Positions 200 to 33,846 of a DNA stretch of 38,821 nucleotides are shown piece by piece. The notes under the pieces were generated by a model. It saw only the letters and a list, made by a program, of their open reading frames with translations, did not search any database and was not told where the DNA came from. Every line of letters begins with the position of its first letter. The stretch's first letter is position 1. The position numbers were made by a program, and so were the translations under genes. Source of the DNA: Jimgerdemannia flammicorona (lineage: Eukaryota); assembly GCA_003990765.1 (NCBI GenBank), contig RBNJ01000154.1:1-38821 (forward strand). The letters run 5' to 3'.

Positions 200-3100
200 C
201 TACAGCCCCCAACCAAGCCACCAGCCTGTCAAGGTATCCTCCATAAGGCACTGCCACTGCGATAACCGGCTCCCCAAGCTCTGTTGCCTCCCCTCCTCAA
301 ATACAAATAGCCAGTGACTGGCCAGCCCAACCCAAATAGCCAATGCCCAGCCTAGAGTAATCCACTCCTCCTCTACCCCTCCTATCAATCGATCCCTCAG
401 ATCCTCCCAGCTCTCCCGTACATCATCACCCCTATGCCTTACCCTCAAGCAGTCCCCAATAGCCCACCAAAAGTCACCCAACACCTCACACTCCCCAAGC
501 CAATGTTCTGGCGTCTGTACAAATCCCCCTTCCTGCCCTACATTATGGCACTCCTCGCAGTCAAAGCAGCCCCCTACAATAAGATGTCCTGAGCGGAAGT
601 TAAGCATCACATTCCTCCTTAGCATACACCACCAGACCACCCAGTACTTCAGCGGTATCCAATTTTTCACCACGGCACTCCAGGTCCAAACCCCCTACCA
701 GTCCCACTCCTCACCAATTCCTACTCCTTGCCAACCACTAGGCTACAGATCCTGGCCTGGTCCCCTTTGGCATTCGATTCCATCACCAATGTCGAACTCC
801 AGTAAAGGCATGCCTCCCAGAAGAATGCCGTCCCATCTCCACATTGCCAGGCCCCAAGCCCTCTCCCTCTCATCCCCTTGCCAGCGAATACCAATGCGGT
901 GTGCCCCCTCAGCTATCCCCCACCAGAAGCCTTTATATCGCAGTTGCCCAGTGTTCTGAAGCCCAACTAACGAAAGAAGATCACCAGTCAAGCCTCTTGG
1001 TGATGTCCGCCTCTCCCATACCTTCTGCAGCAGGGGAACCCAGCCCCCTCCACGCAACTCCACTACCCTCTGAAGCCACCATGCCCTCAAGCAGTGTAGT
1101 CTTTTGGGGAAGTCCACCAGCCTAAGACCACCTCTCACCACTGGTAGGGACAGTGTCTCTCAACCAATCTGACTCTGTCTGCCAGCCCAAATCCATCCCT
1201 TGGCCACCTTCACCAATCGCTTCACCACCCAGGCTGGGAAGTCCAGATGATAAGCCAAATACCACAGTTTTGGCAGCCAGTATACATTCAAAATCAAGAT
1301 CCTTCCTGTCAGAGAGAAGTGTCTTCCCCCCCAACCCCACAGGTCCTCCTCCCAAATTCCAATCCTCTGCTTCCACCACAGCCTGGGCAGAACAGACCCA
1401 TAGACTGACAAATATATGTCCAAGTACTACACTGCCTCTCTGGTGGGGACAATTGTTCCAATAACCTCTCTGCCCACTAGTCCATTACCTAGCACCATCA
1501 TTTTGCACTTGTGCCAATTCAGTTTCACTACAGAGTTCTCCTCATACCACTCCACTGTCTTCTTGAGCTTCTCGACATCCGCAGTTACTCCCAAACCAAC
1601 CACCATATCATCTGCAAAGGCTCCAACTTTCCAGCCAATTCCATAGATAGAAAGCCCCACAATCCTCCGCCAAATTCGGTCCATTAGAGGCTCTAAGGAA
1701 AGTGTATACAAAATGGGGGACAGTGGGTCCCCCTGGGGCACTCCCCTACCCAGAGGGAATGCTACCCCTCTATGCCCATTACACATGAGTGCAGCCCTAC
1801 TCCTTTCCAGTAGGCTGACCATCGCCGCCCGAAATGGGACCAGTACCCCAATCCTATCCAACACTTTTGCCAGCCAGACTCGCTGCACCCGGTCATAAGC
1901 CTTCTCCTGGTCCAAGAAGACAAGATGCCCATCTAGTCCACAGGCTCGAGCACCCTCAATAACTCTATGTACCCAGGCCGTGTCATCTCTAATAAGCCGA
2001 CCCCCTATGAAGCCCCTCTGCTCAACATCCACAATTTGCTGGGCCACCTTCTGCAGCCTTGCGACCACCATCTTAGTCACCAACTTTCTGTCCATATCTA
2101 GCAACATTATCAGCCACCAGTTCTTCCAATCCTCTCGCCTTCCCTTATTCTTATAAAGCAGTGTCACCAGCCCAAGATCCTGCTCTCCCACCCATCTCTC
2201 GGACTGCAATACGGAGTCACACATTGCCGTCAACTCTCCCAATATGCTGGGAACTCCAATCATTCTCTTCCAGAAGTCCCAGGGGAGGCCATCCTCCCCA
2301 GGCGCCATACCTGAGGCTGTTGCGGCAAGAACCTGGTGGATCTCGTCCTCCTTTACAGGCATCACCAGGTCACCTAATCCCTTAGCTCGTGGAGGGTACC
2401 AATCTTCTAATGTTTGTTCAATGGCTGTAGCATCTGCCCCACCCTCCTCCTCGCTCCACAATCCACTCCATCGCACCTTCAGTATTCCAAGGATATTCTG
2501 TACACCATGTACTAGTCTACCATCTGAGTCAAGTACCCCTTCCCACTGCTGCTGTACCCTTCTCGCTCAAAGCATCCTTGTAAGAAACTTGAAAGGCCTC
2601 TCCCCTTCCTCCAGCCCCTGCCAACGAAGCTGTGCCACCAGGCCTTGCACCCTTGACTCTTCCTCTTCCCACAGCACCTGTTGTAGTTCCCCAATCTCCA
2701 TCTTTGCCCTTGTTATTCTCCAATCCTCTTCTCCCTCCACTACTGCCAGACTCGCCCACTCCTCCAGAAGCCTAGCCAATCTAGTAGAAGCCCAATGCAA
2801 TCTCTGCCTTCGCTGCCTCCCAGCCACTCTGCCAGCCTCGCTCCAATACATCCTGGCCATCTCTTTCATCCTCCTCCACTGAACCCCAATTGTGGCCCCT
2901 TCCTGCCACCAATTTGCCACCTTCATCTGAATGTCATTTGCCCACTCCTCTCACCAGAACTTGTCATCCAATAAGGAGGAATTCAGATGCCAATGTCCAG
3001 GCCCATCACCACTTCCCCCAAAACACCCCTGGCCCAAAAGGTCCCAGTGGTCTGACCACAGACACCATTATACCTCTAGCCCCTTCCAAATGTCACAGCC

Positions 3101-3727
3101 CCAACAGTCGGCCATCAGGATCCAGTCAATTCTTGTCCCCAGACCTCCAGCCCAATGCATATATACCCTCCTATCCCTCCAGTATTCCCTACCAGCATCT
3201 ACCAGCGCTCCTAGCCTTTCGACCTCCTCCCACATTGCCAGCCCCCCACTCCTGCTCTCAGCACCCCATCCTTCATCAGTTCTATCCAGCCATACATCCC
3301 GAACTATATTGAAATTGCCTCCAAGTATATCCATCCCAGCTTCAGCAAGGATCCCACTCTCCAGGAGCCCTTTCACCCAATCCACATGCTCTCCCCACAC
3401 AGCAGGGCAGTAACAGGAGCCAACTGTAACTGGCTCCCACCCTGCATGAATCCACTCACCCCAGACCAGTCTCTCCCCCCAGCTCCTCACATTCTGTATC
3501 TCCCCTCTGCCTTTCCAAACCAGAATCCTGACCTTGCTGTTCCAAATTGCCATACCACCCCATTTCTTAGTCCATTCCATCCTATCATAATCATCCTTGC
3601 ACCTGACATCCTGCAAGAGGAAGAGATCAGCCTCCAATTCCTTCAACCAAATAAAAATGTTCCTGCATCTAACTATACTCCTTAGCCCATTCACATTCAA
3701 AGAAAAAAAGTTGGTTGTACTGTTCAT
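200..3727 (-). pseudogene. LINE ORF2 (AP endonuclease - reverse transcriptase - CCHC-like C-terminus), frameshifted
   Basis: APE motifs SLNVNGL, GGNFN, RIDWIL and WSDH (~3047-3058). RT motifs APGEDG, LDQEKAYDRV, GVPQGDPLSP and FADD in 1427..2476. C-x2-C...H-x4-C in 200..673. Split over several frames. Confidence 0.92.
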
Positions 3728-3757
3728 AATGAAATATGGTTTGTTTGCAATCAATCC

Positions 3758-5788
3758 CTACTGCTCCATGCCCCTCTCCTCCTGTGCCATGTCCAGAATG
3801 TGTTCAGCCATCACCTCCTCCTCTTCAGCCCTCTGAGCCTCCAGTCCAGCCAACAGCTCATTCATCTCCTCATCAGCCTTCTTCTCAAACTCCTCTCTGT
3901 ACTCAATGCAAGCCTCCTGCCAAAGCTGCAACCTATGACACCTGTTCCAACAGTACTCAGCCTTCTCCCCAGCAATAACCGCCAACTCTGCCTCCCTCTC
4001 CTTGTCTACCTCAAACCCTTCCTCCTCCAGATACACTGCAAGAATTTCTGCCTTCAGCACCATCGCCACTCCTTCCCCCTGCAAAATTCTTGCCCAGTAC
4101 TCGTCACTCATCCCATGCAAGTCCACCTCCCCCAGCTCTTCTGCTGCCAGGTTGTTCATCATCCAGTACATCCAAAGTAGGTTCCCCACCTCCTTCCCAC
4201 CAGGGGTCACTGGCCTCCCTCCATCCAGCATCATGGTGTCAGCCCCAGCACTCGCATCCTCATCCCACCCCTCCGGGACATCCACCAGTTCCTCCTCTCC
4301 GGCCGCCACTACCTGGTCCTCATCCATTATCTCCAGAATGCTGAATTTCACCTGCTGGGTCCCCAGCATCGTCACGTCCTCCCCAGATTTGTTCCTGGAA
4401 GCCAGGCCACACCTGATAAGAGGGGAAGGGGTGAGGGAGTTCTCCCAGACTTCCTCCCAAACCTCCAAGGTACCATCTGTATATGGGTTGTTAATCATTA
4501 CCTCTTTTGCCTTCCCTGTCTTTGCCCCATCATTCCCACTCCTCTCACCAGCCCAGACACTCGCTCTAGCCCCTTCTGCACCCATCTTCATGCTCGCATC
4601 CTTCTGTGGTCCACCCCCCAGTTTAGCCAGCAGATCCTTCTGCCTCTTCTGCCCCTGAGCCCTTTCCCACTGCACCTTGTCTACTCGAATCCTCTTCCCA
4701 TCCACTATCTCCAGGTGCGTTGACTCCTCGAAAGTCTTCCAGGCCTTGGCACGCCGTTCCACAGCCCCATCCAGCTCCTCCAGCACTTCCAATAAATCCT
4801 CCTCCTCTTCTTCACTTCCTTTCACCCACGTCACCTTGCACAGGAATGCACCCCAAGCCATCGCTGAAGGCCAGTCCCTCATCTTCCCAGTAGCCTCTTT
4901 TCCGGCCAGCTGAATCCTCACATCTATGTTCCCAGTCCTGAGTGTGGTCCCTTCCCAGACCCTGAATCCAATATCCACTACCTTGCCATACTCCGCCATG
5001 ACATCCTCCACTCTCTTCCTCATCTCCATCGCCATCACCATGGGGACTCCTTTCACCAGCAGTTGGACCACCCTCAGATCCCATCTCAAACACCTCACCA
5101 TCGGAACACACACCTCTTTAACCACCAGCCCAACCCTCAGTGCCTCCTCCAGCAGTTCAACCCCCTCAAAACCCACCTCCACCCCCTCCAGTCCCTTCAG
5201 GAACTTCACTGAAGCTGCTCCAGCCATCTGCTTAGCGATAAGCCTCAACACCATTTTTGCTATCACCGCTAAGCCCCAGAAACACAGCATGACTGCGATC
5301 ACCGAGATCAACTTCTTGAGTAATGGAGCCACCATCAGTCCCATTACACCATCTGCCAGGTTCCCAGGCCTCGTGCCCTTCCCACCATTTGGCTCACCAT
5401 CAGCAGTCCCATCTAGATTTTTTTCCAGATCACCCATCACACCCCCATCAGCAGTCCCTGCCCCAGCCGCTACCCCCCCAGCTCCACCTCTATGGCCCTC
5501 CAGAGAGGTACCCCCAAGAGGTTGCTGCCTGGCAGCCTTTACCGGTACCTTCCCCCCTCACAGCCAGCTCTCCAGTCCAGCCCCTTGCTGACCCCCCTTC
5601 ACCTTCTCCACAAAGCTCACCCTGCCAGACCCTTGACCTCCAGCTCTGCCCTCTCCTCCACTATGGCCTCCCACCAGCAGGCCCCTCATACTTCCCCCCA
5701 AGCCGGGGCCTCTCCCCACTTGCTGCCATCCAAATGCTCCAGGGCCACCCTGCCCAGTATGTACCTCTGGATGCTCATTGGTCGCCAT
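3758..5788 (-). pseudogene. LINE ORF1 (putative RNA-binding/chaperone protein), frameshifted near the N-terminus
   Basis: 560-aa ORF 3758..5440 ends 30 nt before the ORF2 ATG. Likely true start is MATNEHPE at 5788. Glu-rich coiled-coil-like C-terminus. Homologous decayed copy at 19706-20930. Confidence 0.8.
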
Positions 5789-5894
5789 AATACTAGTAGC
5801 TTTTCTCCAGAAACTATGTCAAAAGTGTTGCCAAAGATTGTGTAACCTGAATGTTACCAGAGAAAGATGTGTCAATTTGATTCATTGGGAGCAC

Positions 5895-6717
5895 TAACCC
5901 AGACCAATTCCTGTAAGGATTGATCTCAGTATTCTAAGGCCCAAGCATCTAGGTTAGACCTCTCCAAGACTCCACATTTGTTCCCTATTTTGTGGAAGAG
6001 AACATCATAGACTGGAGAGCTCCAGACCTCCTTCCCACCACCAAATGTGATGACATCATCGGCAATGATATCATCCTGTACAACATATGCAAGATGTGCA
6101 ATGAAGCACATGAAGTATATGAAATGTGTGATGATGATGAATTCATAGACCTCATCTCCTTCGAAGACATCCTGATCTCTGATGATGAAGTCTCATTGTC
6201 CTGAACATTCTACTCTAAGTCTCTTAGTTACACTGAATAATGCCAGCACTAGCATTCTGATGTAACACTGAATAATGCCAGTACTAGCATTCTGATATAA
6301 TACTGAATAATACCAGCACTGGCATTCTGATGTGATACCAAATTATACCAGTATCCTGAACCTATACAACTATCAGTACTGACTCTGGAACTTAGCAGTT
6401 TTTCCTATCCTGGCATTTTATTTTAGTTATTGGAATTTATATTTAGCTTTATATCTTAGCAACCATTGAATTATATTTTGTATAAATATTCCTCTTATTT
6501 TCTCTGAAATAAAGTCAATTTAGTGCAATACCTATACTTCCTTACAAGTAATCTAAGAGATAACAAGACAGTTTAAAGATAAGAAGTTTAAGGACTATAA
6601 GACCTTGGGAAGGTACTCAAATAAGAACTTGCTTATAACAAAACTTGAGTTAGTCTAAGAGATATATCTTGAAGAGAATCTGGTATATTTGAAGGACTCA
6701 GTGACTACTATGTGACA
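5895..6717 (+). repeat. 5' LTR of family A copy 1 (right half only; cut by the LINE)
   Basis: Collinear with 13169-13950 and ends ...tatgTGACA. TATAAAT at 6481, AATAAA at 6508-6513. Confidence 0.93.
6231..6355 (+). repeat. 35-bp tandem repeat (~3.5 units) with an internal 18-bp palindrome, 5' LTR
   Basis: Unit cactgaataatgccagcactagcattctgatgtaa at 6231, 6266 and 6301, plus a partial unit. Confidence 0.9.
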
Positions 6718-6720
6718 ACT

Positions 6721-6735
6721 TGGTGCCCATTGGCT
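6721..6735 (+). promoter_or_regulatory. Primer-binding site (tRNA identity uncertain; Lys-like if TGGTGCCC derives from TGGCGCCC)
   Basis: TGGTGCCCATTGGCT begins 4 nt after the LTR end (3-nt spacer). TGG is complementary to the tRNA CCA end. Confidence 0.75.
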
Positions 6736-6837
6736 AGTGATTCAAGACAAATCCCTCACTTTCAAGCTGAAAAATGAACAACCCCCACAACAACTACCCT
6801 GACTACAAGAGTCACCCCTGTAAGAATTCAAGATAAG

Positions 6838-9800
6838 ATGGAAATATGTTCCTCTATATTTTATGGATATACTACTAAAGAGTCAATCCTGATCTTTATT
6901 GAAGACTTTGAACAATTCACTGCTGTACAAGCCCTTGGTATAGATGCACAATTGGCCCTTCTACCAGTCAGCCTCAGAGGACCTGCCAGAGATAAGTTTA
7001 ATGTAGCCATTATTGCTGATAATGGTGCAGCCAAACTTGCTAACATGAAGGCCTTCCTCAGAACAATATACTATACTGAAGAAATTAAGCAAGCTCTCAA
7101 GGATCAACTCAATACTATCTGCTAGGAACTTAGTGAAGATTCCAACTCATTCTATACTTGAATCTGCCACCAGATTGTCTTGGCTGACTATGATGATGCC
7201 CTCAAGGAACAAATAGCAGATTCAATCTTCCTCAAAGGAGTTCACTCTGAAATTACTCTAATAATCCAGTCTACCCCAGCTATACTGACCCTTGATCAGA
7301 AAGTGGTCTTTGCACAGAGATATTAGACTGCCAGAAACCCTGCTGAACACTCAATAGAAAAAATAACTATTATCAAGATGGAGCCATCAAAGCCAACCAG
7401 TATTATATCTACTACAGTTGTAAACAGACAACCAATCCCACCTACCCCCAAGGTAATCAAAGCTGACCCAGTGGAAGAACTCACCAAGCAGTTTGCCAAG
7501 ATGACTGTACACCTTGGTAATGTTGTTAGAGAAGTCCAAAGTACCAACAGGAGACCAGTGCAGAGATTTGCAGCTGCTATAGAAGAACACAATATCACAT
7601 GCTTCAGATATGAAGAAGAAGGCCACTATGCAAAGAATTGTATGACTGAAATGAGATGCAAGGTCCAACCAAGCAATACTAGCAGAACTAGAGAACAAAC
7701 CAATACAGTAGTCATCAAGGAGATTGGTGATACTGATGATGAAGAATACTATAAGAAGCTCGAATTCTACCCTACTCCTAAAGGTACCAGAACCTGGTCC
7801 AAGCCCTATGACAAGAAGAGCAACAGCAAGCCAGTTAGAAGACCAAAGAAGACCCCAGCTATCACTATTCAAAGCAAGACTCAACCCGAGGAGATTGATC
7901 AAGACATGGAGTTAGATAAAGTTGCTTGCCAAATCATTGAAGGTACTACTCCAGTCTCAGGAGAAAGCAAAAGCAAGAAGGAACAGAAGCTACACAAGAC
8001 CAAGATCCATCAGTATAATATCTATAAGGACTTCAAGGAATAGAAGGTCAATGCCACTTTTGGACAACTAGCTGAAGTCCCTGCCTTTAGACAGCAGTTG
8101 AGAGTAGAACTTGCAACTATAGCCAAGAATCAAGAGTACAAGATTGTAGAAGCTTATAATGTACAGGAAGAATCTGAAAACTCAGGTAAAGAATCTGAAG
8201 ATTAGTGCAAGACATCAGCCTATACCCTATATCAGATTGAAGACTATATCATCATTGATACCAGTGCTGGAGGATGCCTTATGAGCAAGAAGGCAATTGA
8301 GTGCCTAGGTTGGGATATTGAAGAGTCCACCAAGATGGTCTATATTACAGCAGATGGTACATGAGCTACCCTCCTTGGCAAAATCTGAGAAGTCCCCATC
8401 AAGATAGAAGGAGCTACCATCCCAGTAGATGTGATTGTTATAAGCACTACCAACTATGACATTCTCATTGACAACTAATGGCTTTACAAGGCCAAGGCCA
8501 TCATTGACCTCAATGCCCAGAAGATGCAGATCAACTACAGAGGAAGAAAGGTATGAGTCTCTATCAATGTCCACAAAGAAGTTCTACCAGACATGGAGGA
8601 AGGAGATGAAGAGGACACAGAGATCTTCATGCACTCGGTGAATAAGAACAAGAACAAGAACAAGACACCCAAGCTCACAGATAAGCAGTGGTATAACAAG
8701 ATTATTGATGGCTATGCTCTTTAAGGAAGATACCCCCATGGTACTAGGATGTACTGCTCTGAATACCTGAATGACTGCTGGTCCTATATTAGTGAAGTTA
8801 GGAAAATTCATCAACAGAAACACAAGCAAGAAACTGCTGAAGAAAAAAGAAAAGCCAAAGAAGATGACCAGCTCTCAGAGCTTCAAGCCAACAGTGATGA
8901 TGAGGAGGAACAAGAATCAGACATCACCCTCAAGGTTAAGAAGTTTCACCCTGAAGCCAAGATCCCAGAATATAAGACTGAAGAAGCTATAGAAATAGAC
9001 CTTGCTAGCATTTAAGACACTATCCTCGAACCACAGACCACCACCCTACTTGGTACTGGAATTGGAGTCAAGCTGACAGAAAACTATGCCAGAATTATCA
9101 AGACCAGGAGCAGTCTGGCCAAAAGTGAAATCTCAGTTGAAGGAGGAGTAATTGACCCTGATTATACTGGTGAGATCTTTCTCATAGTCAGAAATCACAA
9201 CCCCACCACCCCATTTGAAGTCAAGAAGTATGACAGGATTGGCCAGATGCTGATCTACGAAATCAAGAAACCCAAGATCACTGAAGCCATCAAACTCATC
9301 AAGATCAAGAGAGGAGAACAAGGCTTTGGATCTACTGGAAGAGGAGTCTATGCTACTATCAAGATTACTGAACTTGAGCACAAGAAAGATAAGGACCAGA
9401 ACAAGCACACATATATAATTGAAGAAAACTTTCCCCTAGAGGAATAACTTCTCAAGATCCTACACCAGAATGAAGAGGTACTTGCTACAGACTTTAGAGA
9501 TATCCACAATCAAGAACCCAAGTACTATCACGAAGTTGACACTAGTGATACCCAGCCCATCTACCAGAAAGCCAGACCTATACCACCAGCCTACAGAGAA
9601 TGGCTGCAAGCAGAACTCAAGGAAATGGAAGAAGCCAGAATCATCAAGCAAGCTATCAGCCCCTGGGCTTCACCTATTGTCCTTACCCCAAAGAAAGGAA
9701 GCAAGCCTGGAGAGTTTGCACTAAGACTCTGCATTGACTACAGGAAGCTCAATACCATCACCAAGAAGGATAGACAGCCCTTGCCAAATATTCAAGAAAT

Positions 9801-10860
9801 CCTTACCACCCTTGGAAGTGAAGCTAAATACTACACCACCCTGGATCTGTTCTCAGGCTTCCATCAGATTAGTCTCACTCAAGATACCAGTGAGAAATCA
9901 GTCTTCATCATACCTGATGCCACCTATATCTAACTATAAATGCCATTTGGAATGTGCAATATCCCAGCAAGTTTCCAGTGAATAATGAACAGAGTCTTCA
10001 GTAATAAGATTGGAAAATGACTCTTTGTCTATATTGATGATGTGATCATCTTCAGCAACACTGCACAGGAATATGTCAATCATATACAGCTAGCTCTCAA
10101 GAAGCTCAAGGAGCATGGCCTCTATATTAATCCCAAGAAATATAAGTTTGCAGCTCAAGAAATCGCCTATCTAGGACACCTCATCAACCAGATCAGAATC
10201 TATACAGATCCCATGAAGATCGAGACTATTGCAGCCTACCCAAGACTCAGAACAACTACAGAAGTCCATGCCTTCCTTGGACTAGTCAGCTACTATAGAA
10301 GATTCATCAAAGGATACTCCAACATTGCAGCACCTATCTACAAGCTACTGAAGAAGGAAATCAAATTTGAATGGACCAAGAAGTACTAAGAAATCTTCAA
10401 TGACCTCAAGACCAGATTGACCCAGGCACCTATCCTCAGAAGACCAGATTGGAACCTAGAATTCATCCTGCAGACAGATGCAAGTGCTACAGGACTTAGA
10501 GTCATCTTAGCTCAGAAGAAAGATGGACATGAATATGTCATCTCCTATACAAGTTGAGGTACCCACAGAGCAGAACAGAACTATGAGTCATGCAAGCTCG
10601 AATGCTTAGCAGTAGTCTGAGCAGTAGACAAGTTCCACTACTATCTAGCCAAGAAACACTTCACCATTCAAACAGACCATTCTGCTCTTGCCTGGCTATT
10701 CCACACTCTGAACCCCAAAGGAATATATGCCAGATAGATCTATAGACTGCAAGAGTATAACTATACTGTCAAGCACTGCTCAGGAAGAATCAATACCAAT
10801 GCTGATGTACTCTCAAGGACACCCTGAAACACTCTCATCAAGATTACTCAATATGAATAA
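6838..10860 (+). pseudogene. Single-frame Gag-protease-dUTPase-RT-RNase H polyprotein with many point-mutation stops
   Basis: ORF fragments at 6838, 7378, 8749, 9247, 9625 and 10042 share one frame. Decayed zinc knuckle CFRYEEEGHYAKNC (~7600), protease IIDTSAG (~8250), RT SPWASP / LCIDYRKLN / YIDD (10030-10041), RNase H QTDAS, TDHSAL and ADVLSR. TAA at 10858-10860. Confidence 0.93.
8923..9339 (+). pseudogene. dut: Trimeric dUTPase domain between protease and RT
   Basis: All five motifs in order: AIEIDL (decayed AxGxDL), TRSSLA, GGVIDPDYTGEI, DRIGQM, RGEQGFGSTG. Confidence 0.95.
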
Positions 10861-12049
10861 GGAGCTATACTATGGATTAATTAGCTACCTTGGGCAGCAG
10901 AAGATATCCAACCATCTTGAACCCTGGACAATCACTATTATCAACTGAACTTAGAAATAGTTTGAACTAGACAACATTACACTCAGAAAAAGAGGAAAGC
11001 TAGTAATATCTGAATACAAGAAGTATCAAGTAATGAAGAAAGTACATGAGCAAGGATACCTAGGAGGAACTAACACATATGATAAGGTAAGAAGAATCAT
11101 ATGGTGGCCTAAGATGGAAGAAGACCTGTGCCAATTTGTCAAAGGGTGTGATAAGTGCTAAAAACAGAAACAAGATCAGCAAGACCAGGCACCTGGGTCA
11201 TCAAGAATTGAGCCTATCCCCTTTCACCATATTGCAATGGATATCATTGAGCCACTATCAGTAACACTATCAGGAAACCACTATATTATAGTTATTGTAG
11301 ACCTCTTTACCAAATGGATAGAAGCAGGAGTATTACAAGAAGCCAATGCCCTCTCTATAGCTGACTTCCTATACTAAGAAATCATCTACTACTATAAGAC
11401 ACCAAAGCAAATCACAACAGACTGTGGTACAGAATTTATCAATAGATTCCATGAGATAATATATCAGAAATACAAGATCCAGTACATCAAGACCACCGCA
11501 TACCACCCTCAAGGAAATGGACAGACAGAAAGAACTAACAAGACCCTCAAGAACATCCTGGTAAAAATATCAGAGACATATGAGAGTTGGGATAATTATC
11601 TCCCAACTGCCCTCTCTGTCCTATGAGATATATGATCACAGAGCATACACTTTACCCCAAGAGAACTGCTCTTTAGAGAAGAAGATTCTGATGGAACCTC
11701 AGCTACAAATCTAGACCTAACTTGGAGATAGGTTGATGCAGAAATCTGGAGACTACACCAAATCAGAAAGAAGGCTGAAGATTATATTATCAAGTCACAA
11801 GTGCTGACAAGAAAGAATGCAGAAAAGAATCACAAGACTCTAGAACCCATCTGAATCGGAGAAAAAGTCCTACTGTATTGAAATATGGTAGAAGCCTCAT
11901 GGTCACGAAAACTGGAGCCCAAATAGGAAGGACTCTTCTATGTGCAAGATATCAAGAGAACTATCTTCTGGCTTAGAAAAATCTCAGAGACTATACTGCC
12001 TACCATGGTACATAGGAACAGACTTAAGAAGTACCACAAACCTATATAA
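10853..12049 (+). pseudogene. Integrase in a separate (+1) reading frame with its own ATG
   Basis: MNKELYYGLISYLG start. H...WWPKM...CDKC zinc finger. Core PFHHIAMD, VDLFTKWIEA, TTDCGTEF and YHPQGNGQTERTN. GPF-like KLEPK(W)EG(P)F. TAA at 12047-12049. Confidence 0.92.
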
Positions 12050-12403
12050 GAGAAGCAAAACATGATGATTGCCTACAAGGTTCTAGTCCATGAATCATAA
12101 CAGCATGTCCTGTGACCAGCAGGCTATCTGTCTGAACCATTCTCTAAGAGATATGGCACCAGCAACTACTCATCCATGAGACTTTTGAAGCCAGAGGAGT
12201 TTGAACTATCAACTGATTGGTCAAGATCAGAATTAGGCCCTTGCTCTATATGAAGAGAGTGACTCTTCAACATCATGCCAAAATACAAAGAGAAGATGCC
12301 AGCCCATAAACACCACTTTTTGACTCCTTGCCAGAGGTTATGGGATCAGCAAATTTTTCAGGACTGGACCAATAAATAAGGATGCTCAAGAAGATCCTTA
12401 TTT

Positions 12404-12413
12404 AGGAGGAAGA
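12404..12413 (+). promoter_or_regulatory. Polypurine tract
   Basis: AGGAGGAAGA lies directly before TGTAATG. The same tract is in copy 2 at 28432-28441 (minus). Confidence 0.8.
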
Positions 12414-12656
12414 TGTAATGGTGACTCCAGAATGATGACATTAGTACAGGAGACAGTCTTTCCTTGCAAGTCACCAGATCAGAGCATAAGAAGATCATAT
12501 GGTATATGAGATGAGCAATGATGACCAACTGTAAGTCATTGTGACTACAGTACAAGTATCCTGAGGAATATAAAAGAAGGATTAAGGAACCACAGTAGCA
12601 GCAACCAACAAGACCCACTAATCTCAAAATAGCTCAAAGACTTACTACAAAATGAA

Positions 12657-13451
12657 ATGTCTGCTGCTCATCAAACCTTAAGATCAAGGAACCACCAAGG
12701 CATCTCAGTTGAAGAGAGAATGTTCCAAGACATCAGAAGAGCTATGAGGACCCGCTCAAGAAGGACTCCTAGTGTCAACCTGGGTACTGGTGACCCTTAT
12801 CACTATATTCTCTACTGCCACAAAATGGAAACAAGGATCACTATTGCTACTGAATACCTCCAAATGTGGCAGGAGTATGAAATAGGAAACCTCCTCTACT
12901 AGAAGTTCCCACAGGCCAGCCCTCAAGAGCTATAAGATACCACTTCCATGGATATATGCAAGGTAAGAATAGCTAAGAAGATCCATCAGATCTTCAGGCA
13001 TGCACCATGGTCAATCCCCAACTTGGAGTATGTTAGAGTCTCAGATTTCAGAGATCTGTTATCCCACCATATCAATGCACTAGAAGCTAGGGTGGTTATA
13101 GAAGCCCAGTTCACTATTACCCTCAATAGTGATGAAGTAGAAGACTTCTGGCATTCCATCTTTCAGAATAACCCAGACCAATTCCTGCAAGAATTGATCT
13201 CAGTATTCCAAGGCCCAAGCATCTAGATTAGATCTCCCCAAGACCCCACATTTGTTCTCTATTTTGTGGAAGAGAACCTCATAGACTGGAGAGCTCCAGA
13301 CCTCCTTCCTGCCACTGAATATGAGATGCATGATGAAGCATATGAAGTATGCGAAATATATAATAATGATGAATTTGCAGATCTCATCTCCTTCGAAGAT
13401 ATCCTGATCTCTGATAATGAAGCCCCCATGGTCCTGAATATTCTGCTCTAA
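12657..13451 (+). pseudogene. LTR-embedded ORF (~264 codons), unknown function
   Basis: ORFs 12657, 12948 and 13266 are one frame. The three internal stops (12900 TAG, 12933 TAA, 13224 TAG) are TGG, CAA and CAG in copy 2. Confidence 0.85.
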
Positions 13452-13463
13452 GTCTCTTGATTA

Positions 13464-13585
13464 TACTGAATAATGCTAGCACTGGCATTCTGATATAATA
13501 CTGAATAATGCCAGTATCGGCATTCTGATATAATACTGAATAATGCCAGCACCAGTATTCTGATGTAACACCAAATTATATCAGT
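13464..13585 (+). repeat. 35-bp palindrome-containing tandem repeat, 3' LTR
   Basis: Three units plus a partial one, homologous to 6231-6355. Confidence 0.9.
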
Positions 13586-14025
13586 ATCCTGAATCTGTAC
13601 AACCATCAGTACCAATCCTGGAACTTAGCCATTTTTTCTGTCCTGGCATTTTATTTTAGTTATTGGAATTTATATTTAGCTTTATATCTTAGCAACCATT
13701 GAATTATATTTTATATAAATACCCCTCTTATTTCCTCTGAAATAAAGTCAATTTAGTGTAATATACACACTTCCTTGCAAGCAATCTAAGAGATAACAAG
13801 ACAGTTTAAAGATAAGAAGTTTGAGGACTATAAGATCTTGAAAAGGCACTCCAATAAGAACTTGCTTATAACAAAACTTGAGTTAGTCTAGGAGATACAC
13901 CTTGAAGAGAATCTAGCATATTTGAAGGACTCAACAACCACTACATGACAGTATCTATAGTAGAACTCTCTGAGCTTTGGTGAGCTTTCTAGTAAGTATA
14001 ATTCTGATATAAGTGAGTAGAGTTG

Positions 14026-15118
14026 TATAAGTATACAACCTCCAAGCTACTAAAATTGCATATTACCCTTAGATCAAATCTAGAAATCATATGTAAGATC
14101 ATAAAGTTAAGTTAAACAAAAGTTATAGACTATAAAGCTAAGTCAACTCAAAATCATAGAATACAAAATAATAAAAATAGAACTTTATCAATCAAGACTG
14201 AAAGTATATATACTGAACATATAGTATATCAAAATAAAGAATCACAATAAAACCAAAACTATAACTATAACTCTCAAACATATATCCAGCTATGATTACT
14301 GAAATTTATAACTACATTTATATTAATATTTGGAAAATTATTATCAACTGGGCTATAGTACCTCTGTTTCTTATAAATATCCATAGTTTAGCACTTTTTT
14401 ACTTTATAAAAACTCAATAGAATACTTTGAACATATTTAGTGAGATTTTCCAAATTGGATAAATCTCAAGCTACTATCAGATCAGCTATCTTCTGGAAGA
14501 TATAATTAACCACTACTATGATACAGATATTACCAAGATATCATAATACTAGAAACTCAATCTGCAAATACTGAGAACTCTTCTATAAGTATAGTATCTT
14601 TATTCTCTATTTCTAAGTTACTATCACTAAAATGATTACTACTCTGATCTATAGCCAAATTGATAATATGGTATAAGAACTTAATCAGAAATATATCAAG
14701 TATATCCAAACTACAGACAGACTTTTCTTATATCTAGATGACTATATCCTGCAAATACCTTAAGTTGAATATACTATAAAGGATGTCTATAATATAATCT
14801 AGTTTGATAATGACAAAGCAAAAGACAATGATCCCTCTGATATCAATATAAGCTCCAGTTAAGAATCTCTGCCAATTCTAGTTATTCTCTCAATTTTATT
14901 AATGAACTTATAATAGTTTATAAATATCTATAAAATTTATTAAAATAATAATCACTGATATAAGTATCAATCTATATTTATACTTGACTACTTCAACTAT
15001 AATAAAGAAATAAGAGAATACAATCTGTACTTTCAGATAACTCTTGAACTAACAACTCTACCTTCTGAGTATGAGTGATATAAAAAACAACCACTAGCTT
15101 ACTATAACTCTATATTAT
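14026..15118 (+). repeat. Family B ~1.1-kb LTR-like repeat (probable solo LTR), copy A, heavily decayed; ORF relic at 14292-15078
   Basis: Homologous (inverted) to 15126-15994 and 16038-17074. Consensus termini approximately TG(C/T)AAG...ACA. Confidence 0.75.
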
Positions 15119-15125
15119 TGGCAGT

Positions 15126-15994
15126 ATTGGTAGAGTGATCAGAGTTAGCAGAGATTCTTGGCTTGAGGTCATATCAGCATCAGAGAGATCATTGTCTTCT
15201 GCTTCATTATCATCAAATCAGATTATATCATAGATATCCTTCATGGCATATCCTACTTGGGACATTTGCAGGATATGGTTATCAGAGTGTGGGAAGGTTC
15301 TATCTGTGGTCTGAATATACTTGATATACTTATGGTTGAGTTCTTATATCATGTCATCAATTTGGCCATAGGACAGAGTAATAACTATTTCAGTAGTAGT
15401 GACTTAGAGGCAGAGAATAAAGATGCTGTACTCATAGAAGAGTTCTTGATATTTTTGAGCAATGAGTTTCTAGTGTTGAGACATCTGGGTAATATCCATA
15501 TCATGGTAGTGTTTGACCATGTCTTCTAGGAGGCAGCTGATCTGGTAGTAGCTTGAGATTTGTCTGATTCAGTGGGTCTTGCTAAGTATGTTCAAGGCAT
15601 TCCATCAGGCTTCCATGAAGTAGAGGGGTGCTAGGCTATGGATATTTATGAGGAGCAGAGGGGGTGTAGCTTGATTGATAATGACATTCCAAATGTCAGC
15701 ACAGATGTAGTTATAGATCTCAGTAGTTATGTTTGTATATATTCAGAAGTTATAGTTATTTGTTTGGTTTGTTTTGGTTCTCTGTTTCGATGTATCTCAG
15801 TGCTCAGTATATATATTTGGTCCTGATTGGTAAGATTCTGTTTGTGTAAATCTTGTGTTCCATGACTTCATGTTGACTCAGCTTTGTATACTGTGACTTT
15901 GGTTTGACTCAGCTTTGTGATCTTGCATGTGATTTCAGTGGCTTGTTCAGAGGGTGATATGTGATTTCAGTAGCTTGAAGGTTGTGTGCTTGCA
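15126..15994 (-). repeat. Family B LTR-like repeat, copy B (least decayed, 3'-truncated); ORF relic from 15730 to ~15126
   Basis: Starts TGCAAGCACACAACC. CCAAT and TATATATA lie upstream of an ORF broken only by single-transition stops. Confidence 0.78.
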
Positions 15995-16037
15995 ATCAGA
16001 TTCACTATTAGTATATCTTTGATAGATTACAGTACTA

Positions 16038-17074
16038 TGTATTACAGAGTTGTAGTATACTAGTAGTTGTTCTTTATTTTACTTATACTTAGAAAGTAAG
16101 GTTATTAGTTCTATCTTGAGGGTTATCTGAAGGTATAGATTATATTCTCTAGGCTCTTCATTGTAGTTGAAGTAGTTAGATATAAATATAGGTTAATACT
16201 TATACCAGTGGTCATTATCTTAGTAGGTCTTATATGCAGTTATGAACTATTATAAGTTTATTAGTAAGATTGGTGAGGTGATCAGGATTGGTAGGAATCC
16301 TTAACTAGAGATTATATTAGTATCAGAGAGATTATTGTCTTCTACTTTATTAATATCAAACTAGATTATATCATAGATATTCTTCATAGTATATCCAACT
16401 TGATATATTTGTAGTTGAGTTCTTATACTATGTCATTGATTTGGCCATAAATTAGAGTAACAACCATTTTAGTAGTAGTAACTTGGAGGCAGAGAATAAT
16501 AGTGCTGTATTTATAAAAGAGCTCTCAGTGTTTACAAGTGATAAGTTTCTAGTATTAAGACATTTCAGTAATATCTGTATTATAGTGATGGTTAATTATA
16601 TCTTTCAGAAGGTAGCTAATCTAATAGTAGTTTAAAATTTGTCTAATTCAGTAGATCTCACTAAGTATATTCAGGGCATTCTATTGGACTTTTATAAAAT
16701 AGAGAAGTGCTAGGCTATGAATATTCATAAGGAATAGGAGTGCTGTGGCTCAATTGATAATAATATTTCAAATGTCAGTACAGATGCAGTTGTAGACTTC
16801 AGTGACTATATCTAGGTATATTTTTGAGAGTTGTGGTTATTTGTTTAGTTTGTTGTAATTCTCTATTTTGATATGCTATATATTTGATATATATACTTTT
16901 GGTCCTAATTAGTAAGATCTCATTTTTGTATATCTTATCTTCTATGACTTCAAGTTGACTCAGCTTTATGATCTGTGACTTTAGTTTGACTTGGCTTCAT
17001 GATCTGATAGATAATTTCTGAATTCATTCTGAGGGTAATGTGTAATTTCAGTAGCTTAGAGGTTGTATCTTATA
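16038..17074 (-). repeat. Family B LTR-like repeat, copy C
   Basis: Direct repeat of copy B and full-length inverse of copy A. ORF stop, then AATAAA, then terminal ...GTAATACA. Confidence 0.75.
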
Positions 17075-18300
17075 TGTATACATATATAGTACTGCTAGTC
17101 AGATTCTTCTTAAACTAGAACTACTCTAAGACTATCTTTAGAAGTATCTGTATATAAAATGAATGACTTCTATATGGTTGGACTATATAAAAATCAGTAC
17201 TATAGTCATATAATACTTGAGTTCTTTGAAGACTAGATCTTATGATTCCATCTATTTGTATAGTATTTCTTTCTTAAGAAGGATTTAGATTGGAGCAGCA
17301 ATTTGAGTAAAGTTCTTAATAAATTTTCTATAATAAGACACTAATATCAGAAATGATAGTGTTTTCTTTAGAATCTTAGGTTCTGATCAGTTGTTGATCT
17401 TCTCAGTTTTCTTTAGATCTATATGGGTTTCTTCTTTCAAAACTATAAATCTAAGAATTTTGAGTCTCTGTTTTCCAAAGTAGCATTTCTTGGTATTGAG
17501 TCTCAGGTGGTTCTTGCAGGTGAGCTTAAAGAATTTCTCTAGATATATATGTAGGTATTCTCTGAAATTTGCTAAATAGATATTAGTGTCATTTATATAT
17601 ACAATTAGACAGTAGTAGATCAATAGGTCATAAACTAAGTTTATCATTTTTTTGGAAGGTTTGGGATATATTGTAAAGTTCAAAGAATATTCTTTAAGTA
17701 AAAAAGACTATTTTTTAAATATTCTTAATCTATGGAAATCTTATAAAATCCTACGAAAAGGTCCATATTACTGAAGTATCTAGTCTTATAAGTAGTCTAA
17801 GAGGTCATCAATTCTGAGCAAGGGGTAGATATCTTTTTCTATAACTAGGTTGAGCTTTTTATAGTTTATATAGAGTTTTCATCCTTCTTTCTTAGATATA
17901 ATAAATATAGAACTGACCCAGAGGCTAATGGAGGATCAGATAACTCTATTGTCTAAGAGTTTCTGAATATATTTCTTTTTAAATATCTTTAGGTAATAAA
18001 GTATTCTATAAGACTTTAGTTAAATAGATATTAATTTTCCATATTAATACTATAGTAGTATGATGGGTTATATGTATGATAGATTAATATAGTCTATAGT
18101 AAAAATATCTAGATATTTATGAAGAAGTTCTACTAGTTATTATTATTGCTAAGATATCAATTCTTCTCTAATGTTTGTAGAAAGCTTTATTTCTTCTAGT
18201 TCATAGAGGGGTATTTTCTTTCTTTTAGAACCTTTTGCTATTTTCTAATAGATTTAGTTTATAAACTTCTCTGTAAGTTCAGTTGAGATAAAGTATCAGA
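17075..18300 (-). mobile_element. Heavily decayed Ty3/gypsy RT-RNase H relic (third internal region; may extend to ~19700)
   Basis: Minus strand reads INYKKLN...KDIYPLLRIDDLLD...YFSNMDL (decayed DYRKLN/YPLPRIDD), IVYIND (YIDD) and FILYTDTSKDSLRVVL (TDAS motif). Confidence 0.85.
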
Positions 18301-21680: not shown

Positions 21681-23974
21681 GATATGGTTATGCTATCTGG
21701 AAATAGTAGTAGCTAATGTAGATATAAGAGTATTAGATGCAAGTAAGACAGATAAAGTAGAAGAAGATGATATCATATGAAAAACTCAGTTATATAAAAT
21801 TTGTATATATATAAGCTACAGAAAATATAGTTGTCAAAGAGATTAGAGTCTTACTGATTCTCAAAAAAGATCTTAATCTGGGTCTAGTTAGCTATAATAG
21901 ATCCTGTATCTCAAGATACTCATATGAACTTTAATTTTTTTTTTATAACCAAATCAGTATATCTTAGTGATAAAAATTAAGTATATATATACTCTATGAA
22001 TATTATATATGATATATGATTTTATAGTACTCCTTATGAATGTCTATTATTTTAATAATATATATTTGTAGTTTTGGTTATCTAAGTATTGAGAAGCTAT
22101 CAGACTGGTATAATATGTAATTGACTAAACTACTACAGCTATCTTACTGAGTTTGATAAAGGTAATATCTACATTTCTATCAGTCAAATGAGAATAGCAC
22201 CTTTATGAAAGAGTGACTCAATTGATAGCTTGAGTATGTCAATCAGTTATATAGAGAATTTTTTCTAAAATAGACAATTCTTATTTTAGACATATTTTCA
22301 ATAATGATACTAGATAATATCTGGTAAATAGAGATGACTGTTTAAAAGATACAGAAGGGTATAAGTAGACATTCTAAGTGAAGTTACAAATATATATACT
22401 TATATATATACTTAAGTTTTCATTTTTAAATATGATTATTTATATAGAATTAGTTTTATAATACTACTAATCTATATCAAGTGTCTTTCATATCTCATAC
22501 TTCTTATACTATTGCACAACATCTTTCAGCATGATGGTATAGTATAGCTAATCTATAACCTTATAAATTTTGAAGATATAGAATATTAAATATATATATA
22601 TATACATATATTAAAAACTAACTTTATAAAATAGCTCTCTGATTAATTTACTATAATGCTATAGAGTTAGAATTTTAATTTTTATTTTTTATTTTTGTAT
22701 TTCTCCAAAATTATTATATTTAGTTATAATGAGATGATAGAATGTAAAATAATGATTGAGATAATAGAATAATAATTGAGATATAGAAGAAAATTAGATA
22801 ATAAAAAAAAAAAAAAAAACAATTAGCTTCTCCTTTAGTATTTTTAACTTAGTTGCAATAACTCAAGAACTATCAACTTTAGCTTCAAAATATAAGTTCT
22901 GGCAAACAAACCTTTCTTATAAACTCAAAACTTATTCAAAAAAAAAAAAAAATTCAGCATAATTTCTTACAGTCTTACAAGGCAAATAGTAGTTTATTGT
23001 CAATAGTACTCAAAGAGGTTGACTTCAGATTAAGGTTCCAGCCCAGTACATATATATATATATCTAGTCAACTTTTGGTATTGCAAGATAATAGGGACAG
23101 TTCATTATAGACAATTTTTTACATGAAACGTCACAACAGATCACGTGTGGTCACATGTTGCCGAGGGTCGGATTATGGCCGCAGTCACATATAATTGGTC
23201 ACATGGTTAGGTTTATAGATTGGCCGTTCTGTATCAATACTAAAAATCCACTCCGGCAATTCGGCCTTCCGTTTCGGCGTTTCATGAACGAGCTCGGCTT
23301 CCTGAGATCTAGCTCTATGCGCTTTGGAGTTATTCTACCTGAGATCGGAATCTTAGTTCCGTAGGGGCCGGTGCAGAGGCCTTCCCTCGACCATGATCCC
23401 CGTCGATGAGGGCACTATGTTCGGGCTCAAGCGACGCGACTAGGCTACAAGGCGGCGGGCGCCATAGAGGGACCATTTCTGAAGCCTCCCCGGTCGTCGG
23501 TATTCTGTCCGCTCCCTACTCATGGGCGGTTAGTGCTCACCCCGAACCTCGGGTTGAAACGTACACGTAGACGAGATCAATATGAGGGCTGCCTGCAGTA
23601 TCCAGAAATTCCAGCAGCAATTTTCACTTCATGAACTTTTGATTTTTTGCAGCTTTAGTTAACTCACCGCGATGTATGCTAAGTCCGCTGCCAAGACGTT
23701 TTGTGTCAGCCAGGAACGCTCTTGAATTCGAGAAATAGAAGAGATACACATAATACTCTCAGAACCGTCAATTCCGATCCACGGACCTCCGGGTTTCGGG
23801 AACAATAAACCTTACTGTGTAAGGATTCAATGGCATTTAGGTAGCGGTGGTACCATCGGAGGCATAAAACTGCCTACTAAATGTTCTGATATTGATCCTC
23901 CCATTCGGTTTCTCCTCCTCATTCACCTTTCCCCCTCTCTCCACCATACCTCCCAAGAACGAAAACGCGAGACT

Positions 23975-28431: not shown

Positions 28432-31400
28432 TCTTCCTCCTAAATAAGGATCTTCTCTTGAACATCTTTATTCATTAGTCTAGTCTGAAAAATTTACTAA
28501 TCTTATAATCTCTGATAGAGGGTCAAAAAGTAATATTTATGGGCTAGTATCTTTTTTATATATTTTGGTATAATAGTGAAGGATTACTCCCTTTATACAG
28601 AGTAAGGGCCTAATTCTGATCTTAACTAATCAGTTAATAGTTTGAACTTCTCTGGCTTCAAAAGTCTCATGAATAAGTAGTTGCTGATATCATATCTCTT
28701 AGAGAATAGTCTAGACAGATTATCTGCTAGTTATGGGATATGCTGTTATAATTTGCAGACTAGAACCTCATGGGCAGTTATTATATTTTGCTTCTCTTAT
28801 ATAGGTTTATAGTACTTCTTGGGTCTGTTCCTATATATTATAGTAGGTAGTATAGTTCCTGAGAGTTTTCTAAGCTAGAAGATAGTCCTTTTGATATTTT
28901 GCACATAGAAGGGTCCTTCCTATTTAGGCTCTAGTTTTTGTGATCATGAGACTTTTACTATATTTCAATATAGTAGAACTTTTTCTCAGATTTGAATGGG
29001 TTCTAAAGGTCTTGTGATTCTTTTCCACATTCTTTCTTATTAGTACTTGTGACTTGATGATGTAATCTTCTGCCTTCTTCCTGATTTGATATAGTCTTTA
29101 GATTTTTGAGTCAATCTATCACTAAGTTAGGTCTAAATTTGTAACTGAGGTTCTATCAGAATCTTCTTCTCCAAAGAGTAGTTCTCTTGGAGTAAAGTGT
29201 GTGCTCTATGACTATATATCTCATAAGACAGAGAGAGTGGTTAGGAGGTAGTTATCCCAATTCTTATATATTTTTGAGATCTTGGCCAGAATGTTCTTGA
29301 GGATCTTATCGGTTCTTTCTATCTGTCCATTTTCTTGAGAGTGATATGCAGTAGTCTTTATGTACTGAATCTTATATTTCTGATACATTATCTCATGGAA
29401 TCTGTTGACAAATTCTGTGCCAAGATCTGTAGTAATTTACCTTGGTATCTTATAGTAGCAGATGATTTCTTGATACAGAAAGTCAGCAATAGAGAAAGTA
29501 TTGGCTTCTTGTAATACTCCTGCTTCTATCTATTTAGTAAAGAGATCTATAATAACTATGATATAGTAGTTTTCTGATAGAGTTACTAGTAGTAGTCTAA
29601 TGATGTCTATTGTGATATAGTGGAAGGAGATAGATTTGATTCTTAATGACCTGGATGTCTGGTCTTACTGATCTTATTTCTGTTTTTGGTACTTATTATA
29701 CTCTTTGACAAATTGGTATAGATATTCTTCCATCTTAGGCCATTACATAGTTCTTCTTACCTTATTATATATATTGGTTCCTTCTAGATATTCTTGTTCA
29801 TGTACTTCCTTCATTACTTGATACTTCTTATATTTGGGTATTATAAGCTTTCCTTCTTTTTTGAGTATAGTGTTATCTAGTTTAAATTATTTTCAAGTCT
29901 AATTGATAATAGTGATAGTCTAGGGTTTGAGGTGGTTGGGCATTTTCTGCTGCTCAAGATAGCTAATTAATCTATAGTATAGCTCCTTATTTATATTGAA
30001 TAGTCTTGATGGGGGTGTTTTGGGATATCCTTGAAAGTATATTAGTATTGGTATTAGTTCTTCCTAAGCAGTATTTGACAGTACAGTCATACTCTTGCAG
30101 TCTGTAGATCTATCTGATATATATTCCTTTGAGGTTCAGAGCGTAAAATAGCCAAACAAGAGCAGAATGGTCTGTTTGAATAGTAAAGTATTTTCCAGCT
30201 AGATAGTAGTGAAACTTGTCTACTGCCTAGACTACTGCTAAGTATTCTAGCTTGTATAACTTGTAGTTCTGTTCTGCTCCAGCTTATATAGGAGATGACA
30301 TATTCATGTCTATCTTTCTTCTGAGCTAGCACAGCTCCAAGTTCTATAGCTTGTATCTGTCTGCAGGATGAACTCTAGATTCTAATCTGGTCTTCTGAAG
30401 ATGGATACTTGGGTCAATCTGATCTTGAGTTCATTGAAGGTTTCTTGTCATTTCTTAATCCATTCAAACTTGGTCTCCTTCTTCAGTAGCTCATAAATAG
30501 GTACTACAATATTAGAGTATTCTTTGATAAATCTTTTATAGTAGGAGGCCAGTCTAAGGAAGGCATGGACTTTTATGGTTGTTCTTGGTCTTAGATAGGC
30601 TGCAATAGCCTCAATCTTCATAGAGTTTATATGAATTCCAGTCTGATTGATGATGTGTTCTAAAGGTAGGTAATTTCTTAAGCTGTAAACTTGCACTTCT
30701 TGGGCTTGATGTAGAGGCCATACTCCTTGAGCTTCTTGAGGGCTAGCTGTATGTGGTTGATATGTTCTATATAGTATTACTGAAGTTGATCATAGATAAG
30801 GAGCCATTTTCCAATTTTGTTACTGAAGACTCTATTCATTATTTGCTGAAAACTTACTGGGGCATTGCACATTCCAAATGGCATTTGCAGGTAGACATAG
30901 GTAGTATCAGATATGATAAAGGCTGATTTCTCACTAACATCTTGAGTGAGATCAATCTGATAGAAGTCTGAGAACAGATCCAAGATAGTGTAGTATTTGG
31001 CTTCACTTCTAAGGATAGTAAGGATTTCTTGAATATTTGATAAGAGCTGTCTATCCTTCTTGGTGATTGCATTGAGCTTTCTATAGTCAATATAGAGTCT
31101 TAGGGCAAACTCTTCAGACTTGCTTTCCTTCTTTAGAGTAAGGATAATGAGTGAAGTCCAGGGGCTGATAGCTTGCTTGATGATACTGACTTCTTCTATT
31201 TTCTTGAGTTCTGCTTGCAGCCATTCTCTGTAGGCAGGTGGTATAGGTCTGGCTTTCTGGTAAATAGGCTTAGTATCACCAGTATCAACTTCATGGTAGT
31301 ACTTGAGTTCTTAATTGTGGATATTCCTAAAGTCTGTAAGTACTTCTTCATTCTGGTGTAGAATCTTAAGAAGTTGTTCTTCTAGGGGAAAGTTTTCTTC

Positions 31401-33811: not shown

Positions 33812-33812
<1 letters not shown>

Positions 33813-33846
<34 letters not shown>

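Follow-up and report, generated by a model that had tools for sequence, protein, structure and literature searches.

A long terminal repeat retrotransposon family of Jimgerdemannia flammicorona whose Ty3/gypsy-like integrase appears to start from its own AUG

The stretch analysed here, referred to as the window, comprises 38,821 nucleotides (nt) of Jimgerdemannia flammicorona DNA (GenBank assembly GCA_003990765.1, contig RBNJ01000154.1, positions 1 to 38,821 of the forward strand; contig C154 in our searches). The window carries two decayed copies of one long terminal repeat (LTR) element, copy 1 at ~5895-13950 on the plus strand and copy 2 at 26851-33813 on the minus strand. This retrotransposon is Ty3/gypsy-like, and its integrase is encoded in an open reading frame (ORF) of its own, beginning at an ATG that overlaps the stop codon of the ORF for Gag, protease, dUTPase, reverse transcriptase (RT) and RNase H. 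Conservation within the window's family (family A, ~87-91% identical to the window) and in a sister family (family B, 70-72%) indicates that this split is real and old, and is not a defect. The features concerned are listed below.

5895..6717, plus strand: 5' LTR remnant, 5' part missing, ending ...ACA; aligns to 13169-13950
6721..6735, plus strand: primer-binding-site-like stretch that begins with TGG and lies 3 nt beyond the LTR, read from the sequence
6838..10860, plus strand: ORF1, Gag-protease-dUTPase-RT-RNase H in a single frame, with 21 decay stops; unbroken in locus L061
9016..9339, plus strand: dUTPase domain between protease and RT (Pfam PF00692, E 6.8e-21)
10806..10852, plus strand: RNase H tail and A/C-rich, unstructured leader before the integrase AUG, varying between families A and B
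10853..10860, plus strand: overlapping start and stop ATGAATAA, integrase ATG in the +1 frame and ORF1 TAA, by direct reading
10853..12100, plus strand: ORF2, a complete stand-alone integrase with 12 decay stops, from Pfam, alignment and the fold of a relative
12404..12413, plus strand: polypurine tract, directly before TGT in the window; precedes the 3' LTR in locus L065
12414..13950, plus strand: 3' LTR, ~1.54 kb, TGT...ACA, from copy boundaries
12657..13451, plus strand: ORF3, 264 codons inside the LTR, unassigned function, from conservation across copies
29987..29994, minus strand: junction of copy 2, start codon decayed to ATA (29994-29992), TAA at 29989-29987

In copy 1 the integrase ATG occupies 10853-10855 and the ORF1 TAA 10858-10860. 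RNase H lies in the frame of position 6838 and the integrase in the +1 frame, with Pfam matches to RT_RNaseH before the junction and to Integrase_H2C2 and rve after it. An earlier note on this DNA, made from the letters alone, had described this overlap, and direct reading confirms it; the same offset that it reported for copy 2, with the ATG decayed, is also present, and copy 2 has zero indels relative to copy 1 across 10568-11399. The note's statement that Gag through RNase H form one frame down to the TAA at 10858 holds for the family and fails for copy 1, a dead copy whose ORF1 frame contains its 21 stops (including a TGA at 10825) before that point and whose integrase frame contains 12. 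Because copy 1 is decayed, the split had to be judged on the family.

A junction query against the 231-Mb assembly returned at least 1674 candidate matches, from which the 155 best-scoring loci, a non-random sample, were fetched; 14 that did not cover the junction and 16 duplicates were left out. Over 10798-10900 a net indel of zero was found in 85 of 87 family A copies and in all 38 of family B, which bears out the earlier claim that the offset is no random post-insertion frameshift. The integrase ATG is retained in 81/87 and 37/38 copies of the two families, respectively, and the junction TAA in 86/87 and 37/38. Across copies there is no conserved stop in the ORF1 frame between 6670 and 10858 or in the integrase frame between 10709 and 12098, and in L061 an unbroken ORF of 1344 codons reaches the same junction TAA. 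A 1-nt deletion that fuses both frames was seen in L024 as a lone event. When families A and B are compared, the third codon position is the least conserved upstream, in the frame of RNase H (identity 0.53 vs 0.77 and 0.85), and downstream, in the frame of the integrase (0.53 vs 0.85 and 0.81), while each position of 10853-10866 is at least 0.93 identical and the preceding linker is variable. The frame of third-position variation thus changes at the junction, which shows that selection acted on both frames; since they were selected in the same offset, descent of these copies from a single defective ancestor is refuted.

Among protein relatives, 73 integrase hits were obtained, and the 23 best full-length ones, 41-51% identical to the first, were aligned. 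The Met at the integrase start is invariant in 23/23, 21 of which begin there, and it coincides with the edge of the folded N-terminal domain. In all 44 Met-starting proteins of the two integrase clades described below, the Met is followed by N, D or E, the pattern of NatB acetylation at true N-termini. The structure model of one natural relative, P0001, climbs to a predicted local distance difference test score of 94 by the second residue past the Met. Its fold resembles those of foamy-virus and Ty3 integrase, and foamy-virus integrase is the closest solved integrase by both sequence and fold. P0001 aligns to foamy-virus integrase residues 8-10 just after the Met (Z ~17.7, with a high overall root-mean-square deviation from domain packing), and since the fold alignment starts there, the AUG would mark roughly where mature integrase begins. 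When the 148 representatives of 50% clusters found with a profile were ranked by their best single domain, the top 24 were all stand-alone, ahead of the first fused protein. Two points count against this protein evidence: the profile was built from stand-alone proteins and therefore favours them, and gene callers begin proteins at a Met. A search for longer forms gave 15 hits of 728-2075 residues, peaking at 30% identity, or at 36% for a match covering 60% of the query. The name 'transposase InsO family protein' is attached to four of the integrase hits, including three stand-alone relatives.

Phylogenetic trees place the split well beyond the two families. An RT tree, built from database proteins with gypsy-type domains and no named reference elements, places L061 in a clade of 13 members (support 1.0). 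These proteins stop 13-30 residues past the RNase H motif, and the 11 from databases all have a dUTPase. A second RT clade of 30 members (0.975) has no fused member, 18 having short tails and 12 having tails of 214-356 residues; the few short tails inside fused RT clades are probably truncated gene models. The integrase tree (199 rows) contains pure stand-alone clades of 41 members, including P0001 (0.953), and of 19 (0.962), and fused plant-type integrases nest near them. A single origin of the split is unsupported, with the two integrase-less RT clades unjoined and the fused plant-type integrases nested nearby. Rhizopus microsporus proteins occur in one short-tail cluster, and the layout therefore probably extends to Mucoromycota. 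In one sub-clade, Pol continues past RNase H into an acidic and then Cys/His-rich C-terminal domain, forming the tails of 214-356 residues (P0258, P0261, P0262, P0268, P0271, P0275, P0280, P0295, P0297, P0300 and P0312). Several of these tails end in ADLD or AELD, no precomputed Pfam family covers them, and the domain could possibly be zinc-binding.

Outside this genome, 91 metagenome and viral loci were compared, of which 11 lower-scoring ones were fused by a motif test, many came without flank and ten had measurable split junctions. The stop-to-ATG gaps of these ten are 2, 9, 15, 30, 63, 72, 74, 77, 278 and 521 nt. Their integrases lie in frames 0 and +2, and with +1 in the window family all three frames occur. 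Further stops are found at the junctions of L086, L091 and L104, and in the latter two the integrase frame also closes 18-24 nt upstream of the AUG; the junctions of L089, L098 and L103 show one stop each, in frame. Because varying frames and extra stops fit no single frameshift or readthrough, the integrase would be initiated independently, and we consider separate initiation very probable. Aligning the junction across copies and related families thus finds the split in family A, identically in family B, and in distant relatives; the least broken copies are split as well, rather than the youngest being fused as descent from one defective ancestor would have it, and the separate Met-initiated integrase ORF of the earlier note is upheld.

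Several of the outside loci merit separate description. L086:1-6266 consists of three unbroken cistrons, Gag (972 codons), protease-RT-RNase H (688), which overlaps Gag in another frame, and integrase (429), which lies 30 nt past the preceding stop. Extra ORFs follow the integrase in L081:2403-3121, L088:1257-1952, L089:2011-2484, L095:4384-6295 and L103:5605-7345; those tested gave no Pfam match, and none matches ORF3. L084, L091, L096 and L104 were considered as Ginger-like transposons, an assignment rejected for L091 and L104, where the end of an extended Pol is present; in L084 and L096 the flank is too short to tell a Ginger-like transposon from a Pol-bearing element. Three further loci (L117, L143 and L152) have a stop between RNase H and integrase and lack a Met where the profile begins; these resemble ordinary elements in decay and were not counted, nor were L085 and L112, which are split and too decayed to place the AUG.

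Four of the relatives, belonging to a sister sub-clade, share a motif and a hairpin of eight pairs just 5' of the integrase AUG (L104:465-545, L091:144-219, L096:1-49 and L084:1-70), which in L104 and L091 lies within the non-coding ~75-nt spacer after the Pol stop. Across the four loci, 4/8 pairs are changed on both sides and 96.9% of cells are paired, and only 1-2 of 500 shuffled controls scored as high, which points to a signal acting at the RNA level. Rfam gave no match in the four loci. In viral contigs, the hairpin pattern matched once, in a phage without a retroelement ORF, and two protein scans for more examples found none.

The layout could be explained without any separately initiated integrase. 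A broken ancestor, mobilised in trans by an intact helper of fused layout, might have given rise to all copies, a scenario with which the heavy decay of the copies and the restriction of the sample to best matches would be compatible. We consider it extremely unlikely, given purifying selection on both frames, in the same offset, in two families 70% identical; the 41-member stand-alone integrase clade also takes in the family, long, unbroken ORFs flank the split in L086 and L103, and the lack of a close fused relative among the 15 longer hits counts slightly in the same direction. A full Pol might instead still be made by +1 frameshifting, or by readthrough in the in-frame relatives, with the Met incidental. 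In 65/74 copies the integrase frame indeed runs open through the 47 codons that precede the ATG, and the single in-frame stops of L089, L098 and L103 would suit readthrough. Against this stand the change of relative frame from +1 in the window family to 0 or +2 elsewhere, the further stops in L086, L091 and L104 and the closed integrase frame of L091 and L104, the invariant Met and its N/D/E neighbour, and the absence of a slippery heptamer or a Ty1/Ty3 heptamer from 7/7 copies, so that frameshifting is very unlikely. Of the three mechanisms that the earlier note proposed, the +1 frameshift is accordingly disfavoured by the varying frames, extra stops and invariant Met, and reinitiation and a subgenomic RNA stay as candidates.

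An integrase translated from its own subgenomic RNA, either transcribed from a promoter inside RNase H or spliced from the 5' LTR, would fit the strong start context (A at -3 in 112/112 copies and a purine there in 8/10 outside junctions), the long ATG-bearing spacers of L082 and L095, and the presence of ORF3, which requires an internal RNA or something similar. Precedents are described in the spliced pol RNA of foamy viruses (PMC7828637) and the spliced gag RNA of Copia (PMC5580714). However, the 47 nt directly upstream of the AUG lack a YAG in 77/77 family A and 26/35 family B copies, and a 5' end farther upstream would expose the ATGs at 10727, 10734, 10757, 10799 and 10805, four of them in the integrase frame. 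Nor would a subgenomic RNA account for the placing of the stop on the AUG in both families, whose linkers have diverged, and we regard this route, the main rival to restart, as doubtful. Ribosomes might also enter internally at the integrase AUG, independently of ORF1, through the A/C-rich, unstructured leader, whose 40 nt upstream of the AUG have an A+C content of 0.72-0.80 in ten copies, or through the sister-sub-clade hairpin with its double-sided changes. This is improbable: the hairpin was picked by eye from four sequences, is absent from the window family and could instead be a packaging or integrase-binding signal, and the leader of the window family doubles as coding sequence.

Restart after termination of ORF1 is the best reading of integrase synthesis, and one that we hold with moderate confidence. 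Stop and AUG overlap in the window family and lie at most 77 nt apart in 8/10 outside junctions, and known restart cases, as reviewed, tolerate such gaps (63 nt in LINE-1, an overlap in SART1; PMC5972666). Restart is favoured because families A and B both retain the overlap while their linkers differ, because the gap stays below 80 nt (72-77 nt) in L091 and L104 although Pol there has gained a tail of 214-356 residues, and because the eight spacers of at most 77 nt are poor in ATGs (1 vs 4.8 expected, P 0.035, in a post hoc and modest test that leaves out the two long spacers). Several observations weigh against it besides the character of that test. The spacers of L082 and L095 (278 and 521 nt) hold 3 and 8 ATGs, and that of L092 has one upstream ATG. 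The UGGGA core of the termination upstream ribosomal binding site (TURBS), sought 40-90 nt upstream of the stop, is present in 0/124 copies over 10770-10859. Folding z-scores in seven windows at 17 loci revealed no shared upstream or downstream structure, only isolated negative values in L191, L098 and L103; in the downstream windows of these 17 loci, which are decayed copies, no z-score fell below -1.0, SART1-type coupling being marked by a structure downstream of the stop-start site; upstream of the junction, where victoriviruses have a pseudoknot within 32 nt, no stable structure was found among the nested folds modelled. Rfam gave no match at the junction. The strong -3 context equally fits scanning on a separate RNA, and the closeness of stop and AUG could come from a fused ancestor. 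ORF3, finally, starts 557 nt past the integrase stop and calls for some route besides stop-start coupling, so that the element may make internal RNAs. The exact overlap ATGAATAA itself cannot be upheld as a conserved signal, with relatives at gaps of 2-77 nt and more and no TURBS core in the family.

We hypothesize that the element RNA is polycistronic and that ORF1 yields one Gag-protease-dUTPase-RT-RNase H polyprotein, whereas conservation suggests that the integrase is a separate protein from its own AUG. This AUG would take the place of the protease cleavage by which ordinary elements release their integrase. Some ribosomes that end ORF1 would restart at the overlapping or nearby AUG, and less integrase than Gag and RT would be made. 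Without a link to Gag, the integrase may be brought into the particle through binding to RT/Gag or to the genomic RNA, or it may meet the complementary DNA after reverse transcription; the nearest model for delivery, by analogy, would be RNA-dependent capture as for foamy-virus Pol.

Compared with Ty3/gypsy elements (Metaviridae), the window element is alike in its direct TG...CA LTRs, primer-binding-site-like stretch and polypurine tract, in the order protease-(dUTPase)-RT-RNase H-integrase, in its single Gag-to-RT frame, and in the H2C2 finger, DDE core and GPY/F motif of the integrase. A dUTPase is likewise reported in fungal Ty3/gypsy elements such as PosPlaTy3-5 (PMC2864245). In the accounts of described Ty3/gypsy elements, however, the integrase lies inside Pol, in one or two ORFs (PMC2864245, PMC3248453, PMC12440569, PMC3383448), whereas here it has its own AUG outside Pol, and the 1.5-kb LTR holds a further ORF. 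Since the integrase-in-Pol feature is lacking, the element is called Ty3/gypsy-like. Troyka, described with CG...CG ends, a 3-bp duplication and a single Gag-Pol (PMC12440569), is ruled out by the TG...CA ends. Termination-reinitiation is reviewed for caliciviruses, influenza B, victoriviruses, the hypovirus CHV1 and the non-LTR elements SART1 and LINE-1, and the section of that review on such cases names no LTR element (PMC5972666). As in caliciviruses, the stop of a long ORF overlaps the next AUG, by 8 nt in the window and by a reported 1-14 nt in the viruses. Unlike TURBS systems, the window family has neither the UGGGA core nor a detected upstream or downstream structure, and the protein encoded downstream is an enzyme normally released by polyprotein cleavage.

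Foamy viruses also make their enzyme precursor apart from Gag and package it via the genomic RNA (PMC7828637), although there the whole Pol is separated, by splicing, and the integrase is still cut from it, whereas the break in the window element falls between RNase H and integrase. In plant Tat elements an additional RNase H is described in a separate ORF (PMC10508981); a Ty3/gypsy enzyme domain lies outside pol in both, raising the same question of delivery, but the extra Tat RNase H is accessory and located upstream of gag or pol, whereas the separate domain here is the essential integrase. Ginger1 shares with the window element a stand-alone gypsy-type integrase of ~400 residues and, apparently, an aromatic motif on the N-terminal side of the zinc finger, and differs, as described, in its terminal inverted repeats, lack of RT and extra protease domains, the window element having LTRs and RT (PMC2836005). 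In our set an aromatic residue occurs at positions 5-8 in 42/44 proteins and the strict pattern Y-YL-[YF]P in 6/44, the motif described for Ginger1 being YPYY; the integrase tree was built without Ginger1 proteins. Ginger1 has been placed near Athila/Tat, with the route from gypsy to Ginger1 left open (PMC2836005; restated in PMC6839031). Gypsy-1-I_RO, from Rhizopus oryzae to judge by its suffix, is listed with the aromatic motif (PMC2836005), and this Repbase entry may already record the split. The separate ORFs in the relevant passages of PMC5911963, PMC2582038 and PMC4427930 are gag/pol or belong to non-LTR elements, and our literature search, whose coverage excluded Repbase and most subscription papers, found no description of an RNase H/integrase split.

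In the LTR retrotransposons and retroviruses described so far, a tie to Pol is what carries integrase into the particle. A lineage with families less than 50% identical that lacks this tie must set the level and delivery of its integrase in some other way. The junction offers a short, testable case in fungi of restart after a very long ORF, so far mainly a viral phenomenon, and the split offers a concrete path by which stand-alone gypsy-type transposases could have arisen. Annotation pipelines would call such elements broken, or their integrases separate transposase genes. As a tentative possibility, the elements may form a widespread undescribed LTR branch of early-diverging fungi and soil eukaryotes, in which restart replaced the protease cut, non-TURBS cis signals operate (the A/C-rich leader in the window family, the covarying hairpin in the sister sub-clade) and integrase is delivered to the particle or complementary DNA without a Gag link. 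If so, self-starting integrase cistrons would be a ready-made intermediate from gypsy elements to Ginger1-type DNA transposons.

The remaining anatomy of the element is that of an LTR retrotransposon. The LTR pair of copy 1 is identical at 691/781 positions (88.5%), with transitions making up 83 of the 90 mismatches, and the left part of its 5' LTR is lost beside a long interspersed nuclear element (LINE). The LTR boundaries agree with other copies: in the C2031 copy the 5' LTR starts at the equivalent of 12414, and several copies end at 13950. The primer-binding-site-like stretch also follows the 5' LTR in L061, L071, L072, L075 and L079. For the target-site duplication, 4-6 bp in Ty3/gypsy elements, one copy was viewed, in which the 4-bp flanks agree at 3/4 positions, the other being a transition. 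The Gag part of copy 1 has no Pfam match and the protease a weak one (E 0.0036); ORF1 terminates 13 codons past the RNase H end motif, and ORF2 consists of an N-terminal extension, the H2C2 finger, the DDE core and the GPY/F region. ORF3 has no conserved stop across 12630-13449, retains its ATG at 12657 in 21/25 copies, has a 47% identical match in a family B locus and gave no Pfam match above the cut-off. Between the integrase and the start of the LTR, window 12177-12522 includes a 114-codon span without conserved stops or a leading ATG, and it has no Pfam match. Head-to-tail repeats of ~30 nt occur within the LTR at 6230-6350 and 13465-13580.

Elsewhere in the window, a GC-rich and far less decayed LINE-like element with a 599-codon ORF1, an endonuclease and an RT occupies 200-5790 on the minus strand and abuts the truncated 5' LTR. 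A decayed Ty1/copia element (Pol_BBD, RVT_2) lies at 35700-38500 on the minus strand. The only non-mobile gene recognised is a probable intron-containing host methyltransferase gene at 23726-25589 (Methyltransf_25/11). Between the two copies, a cluster of AT-rich, ~1.1-kb direct and inverted repeats with 73-85% identity spans 14250-17066 and is adjoined by an RT remnant at 17387-17707.
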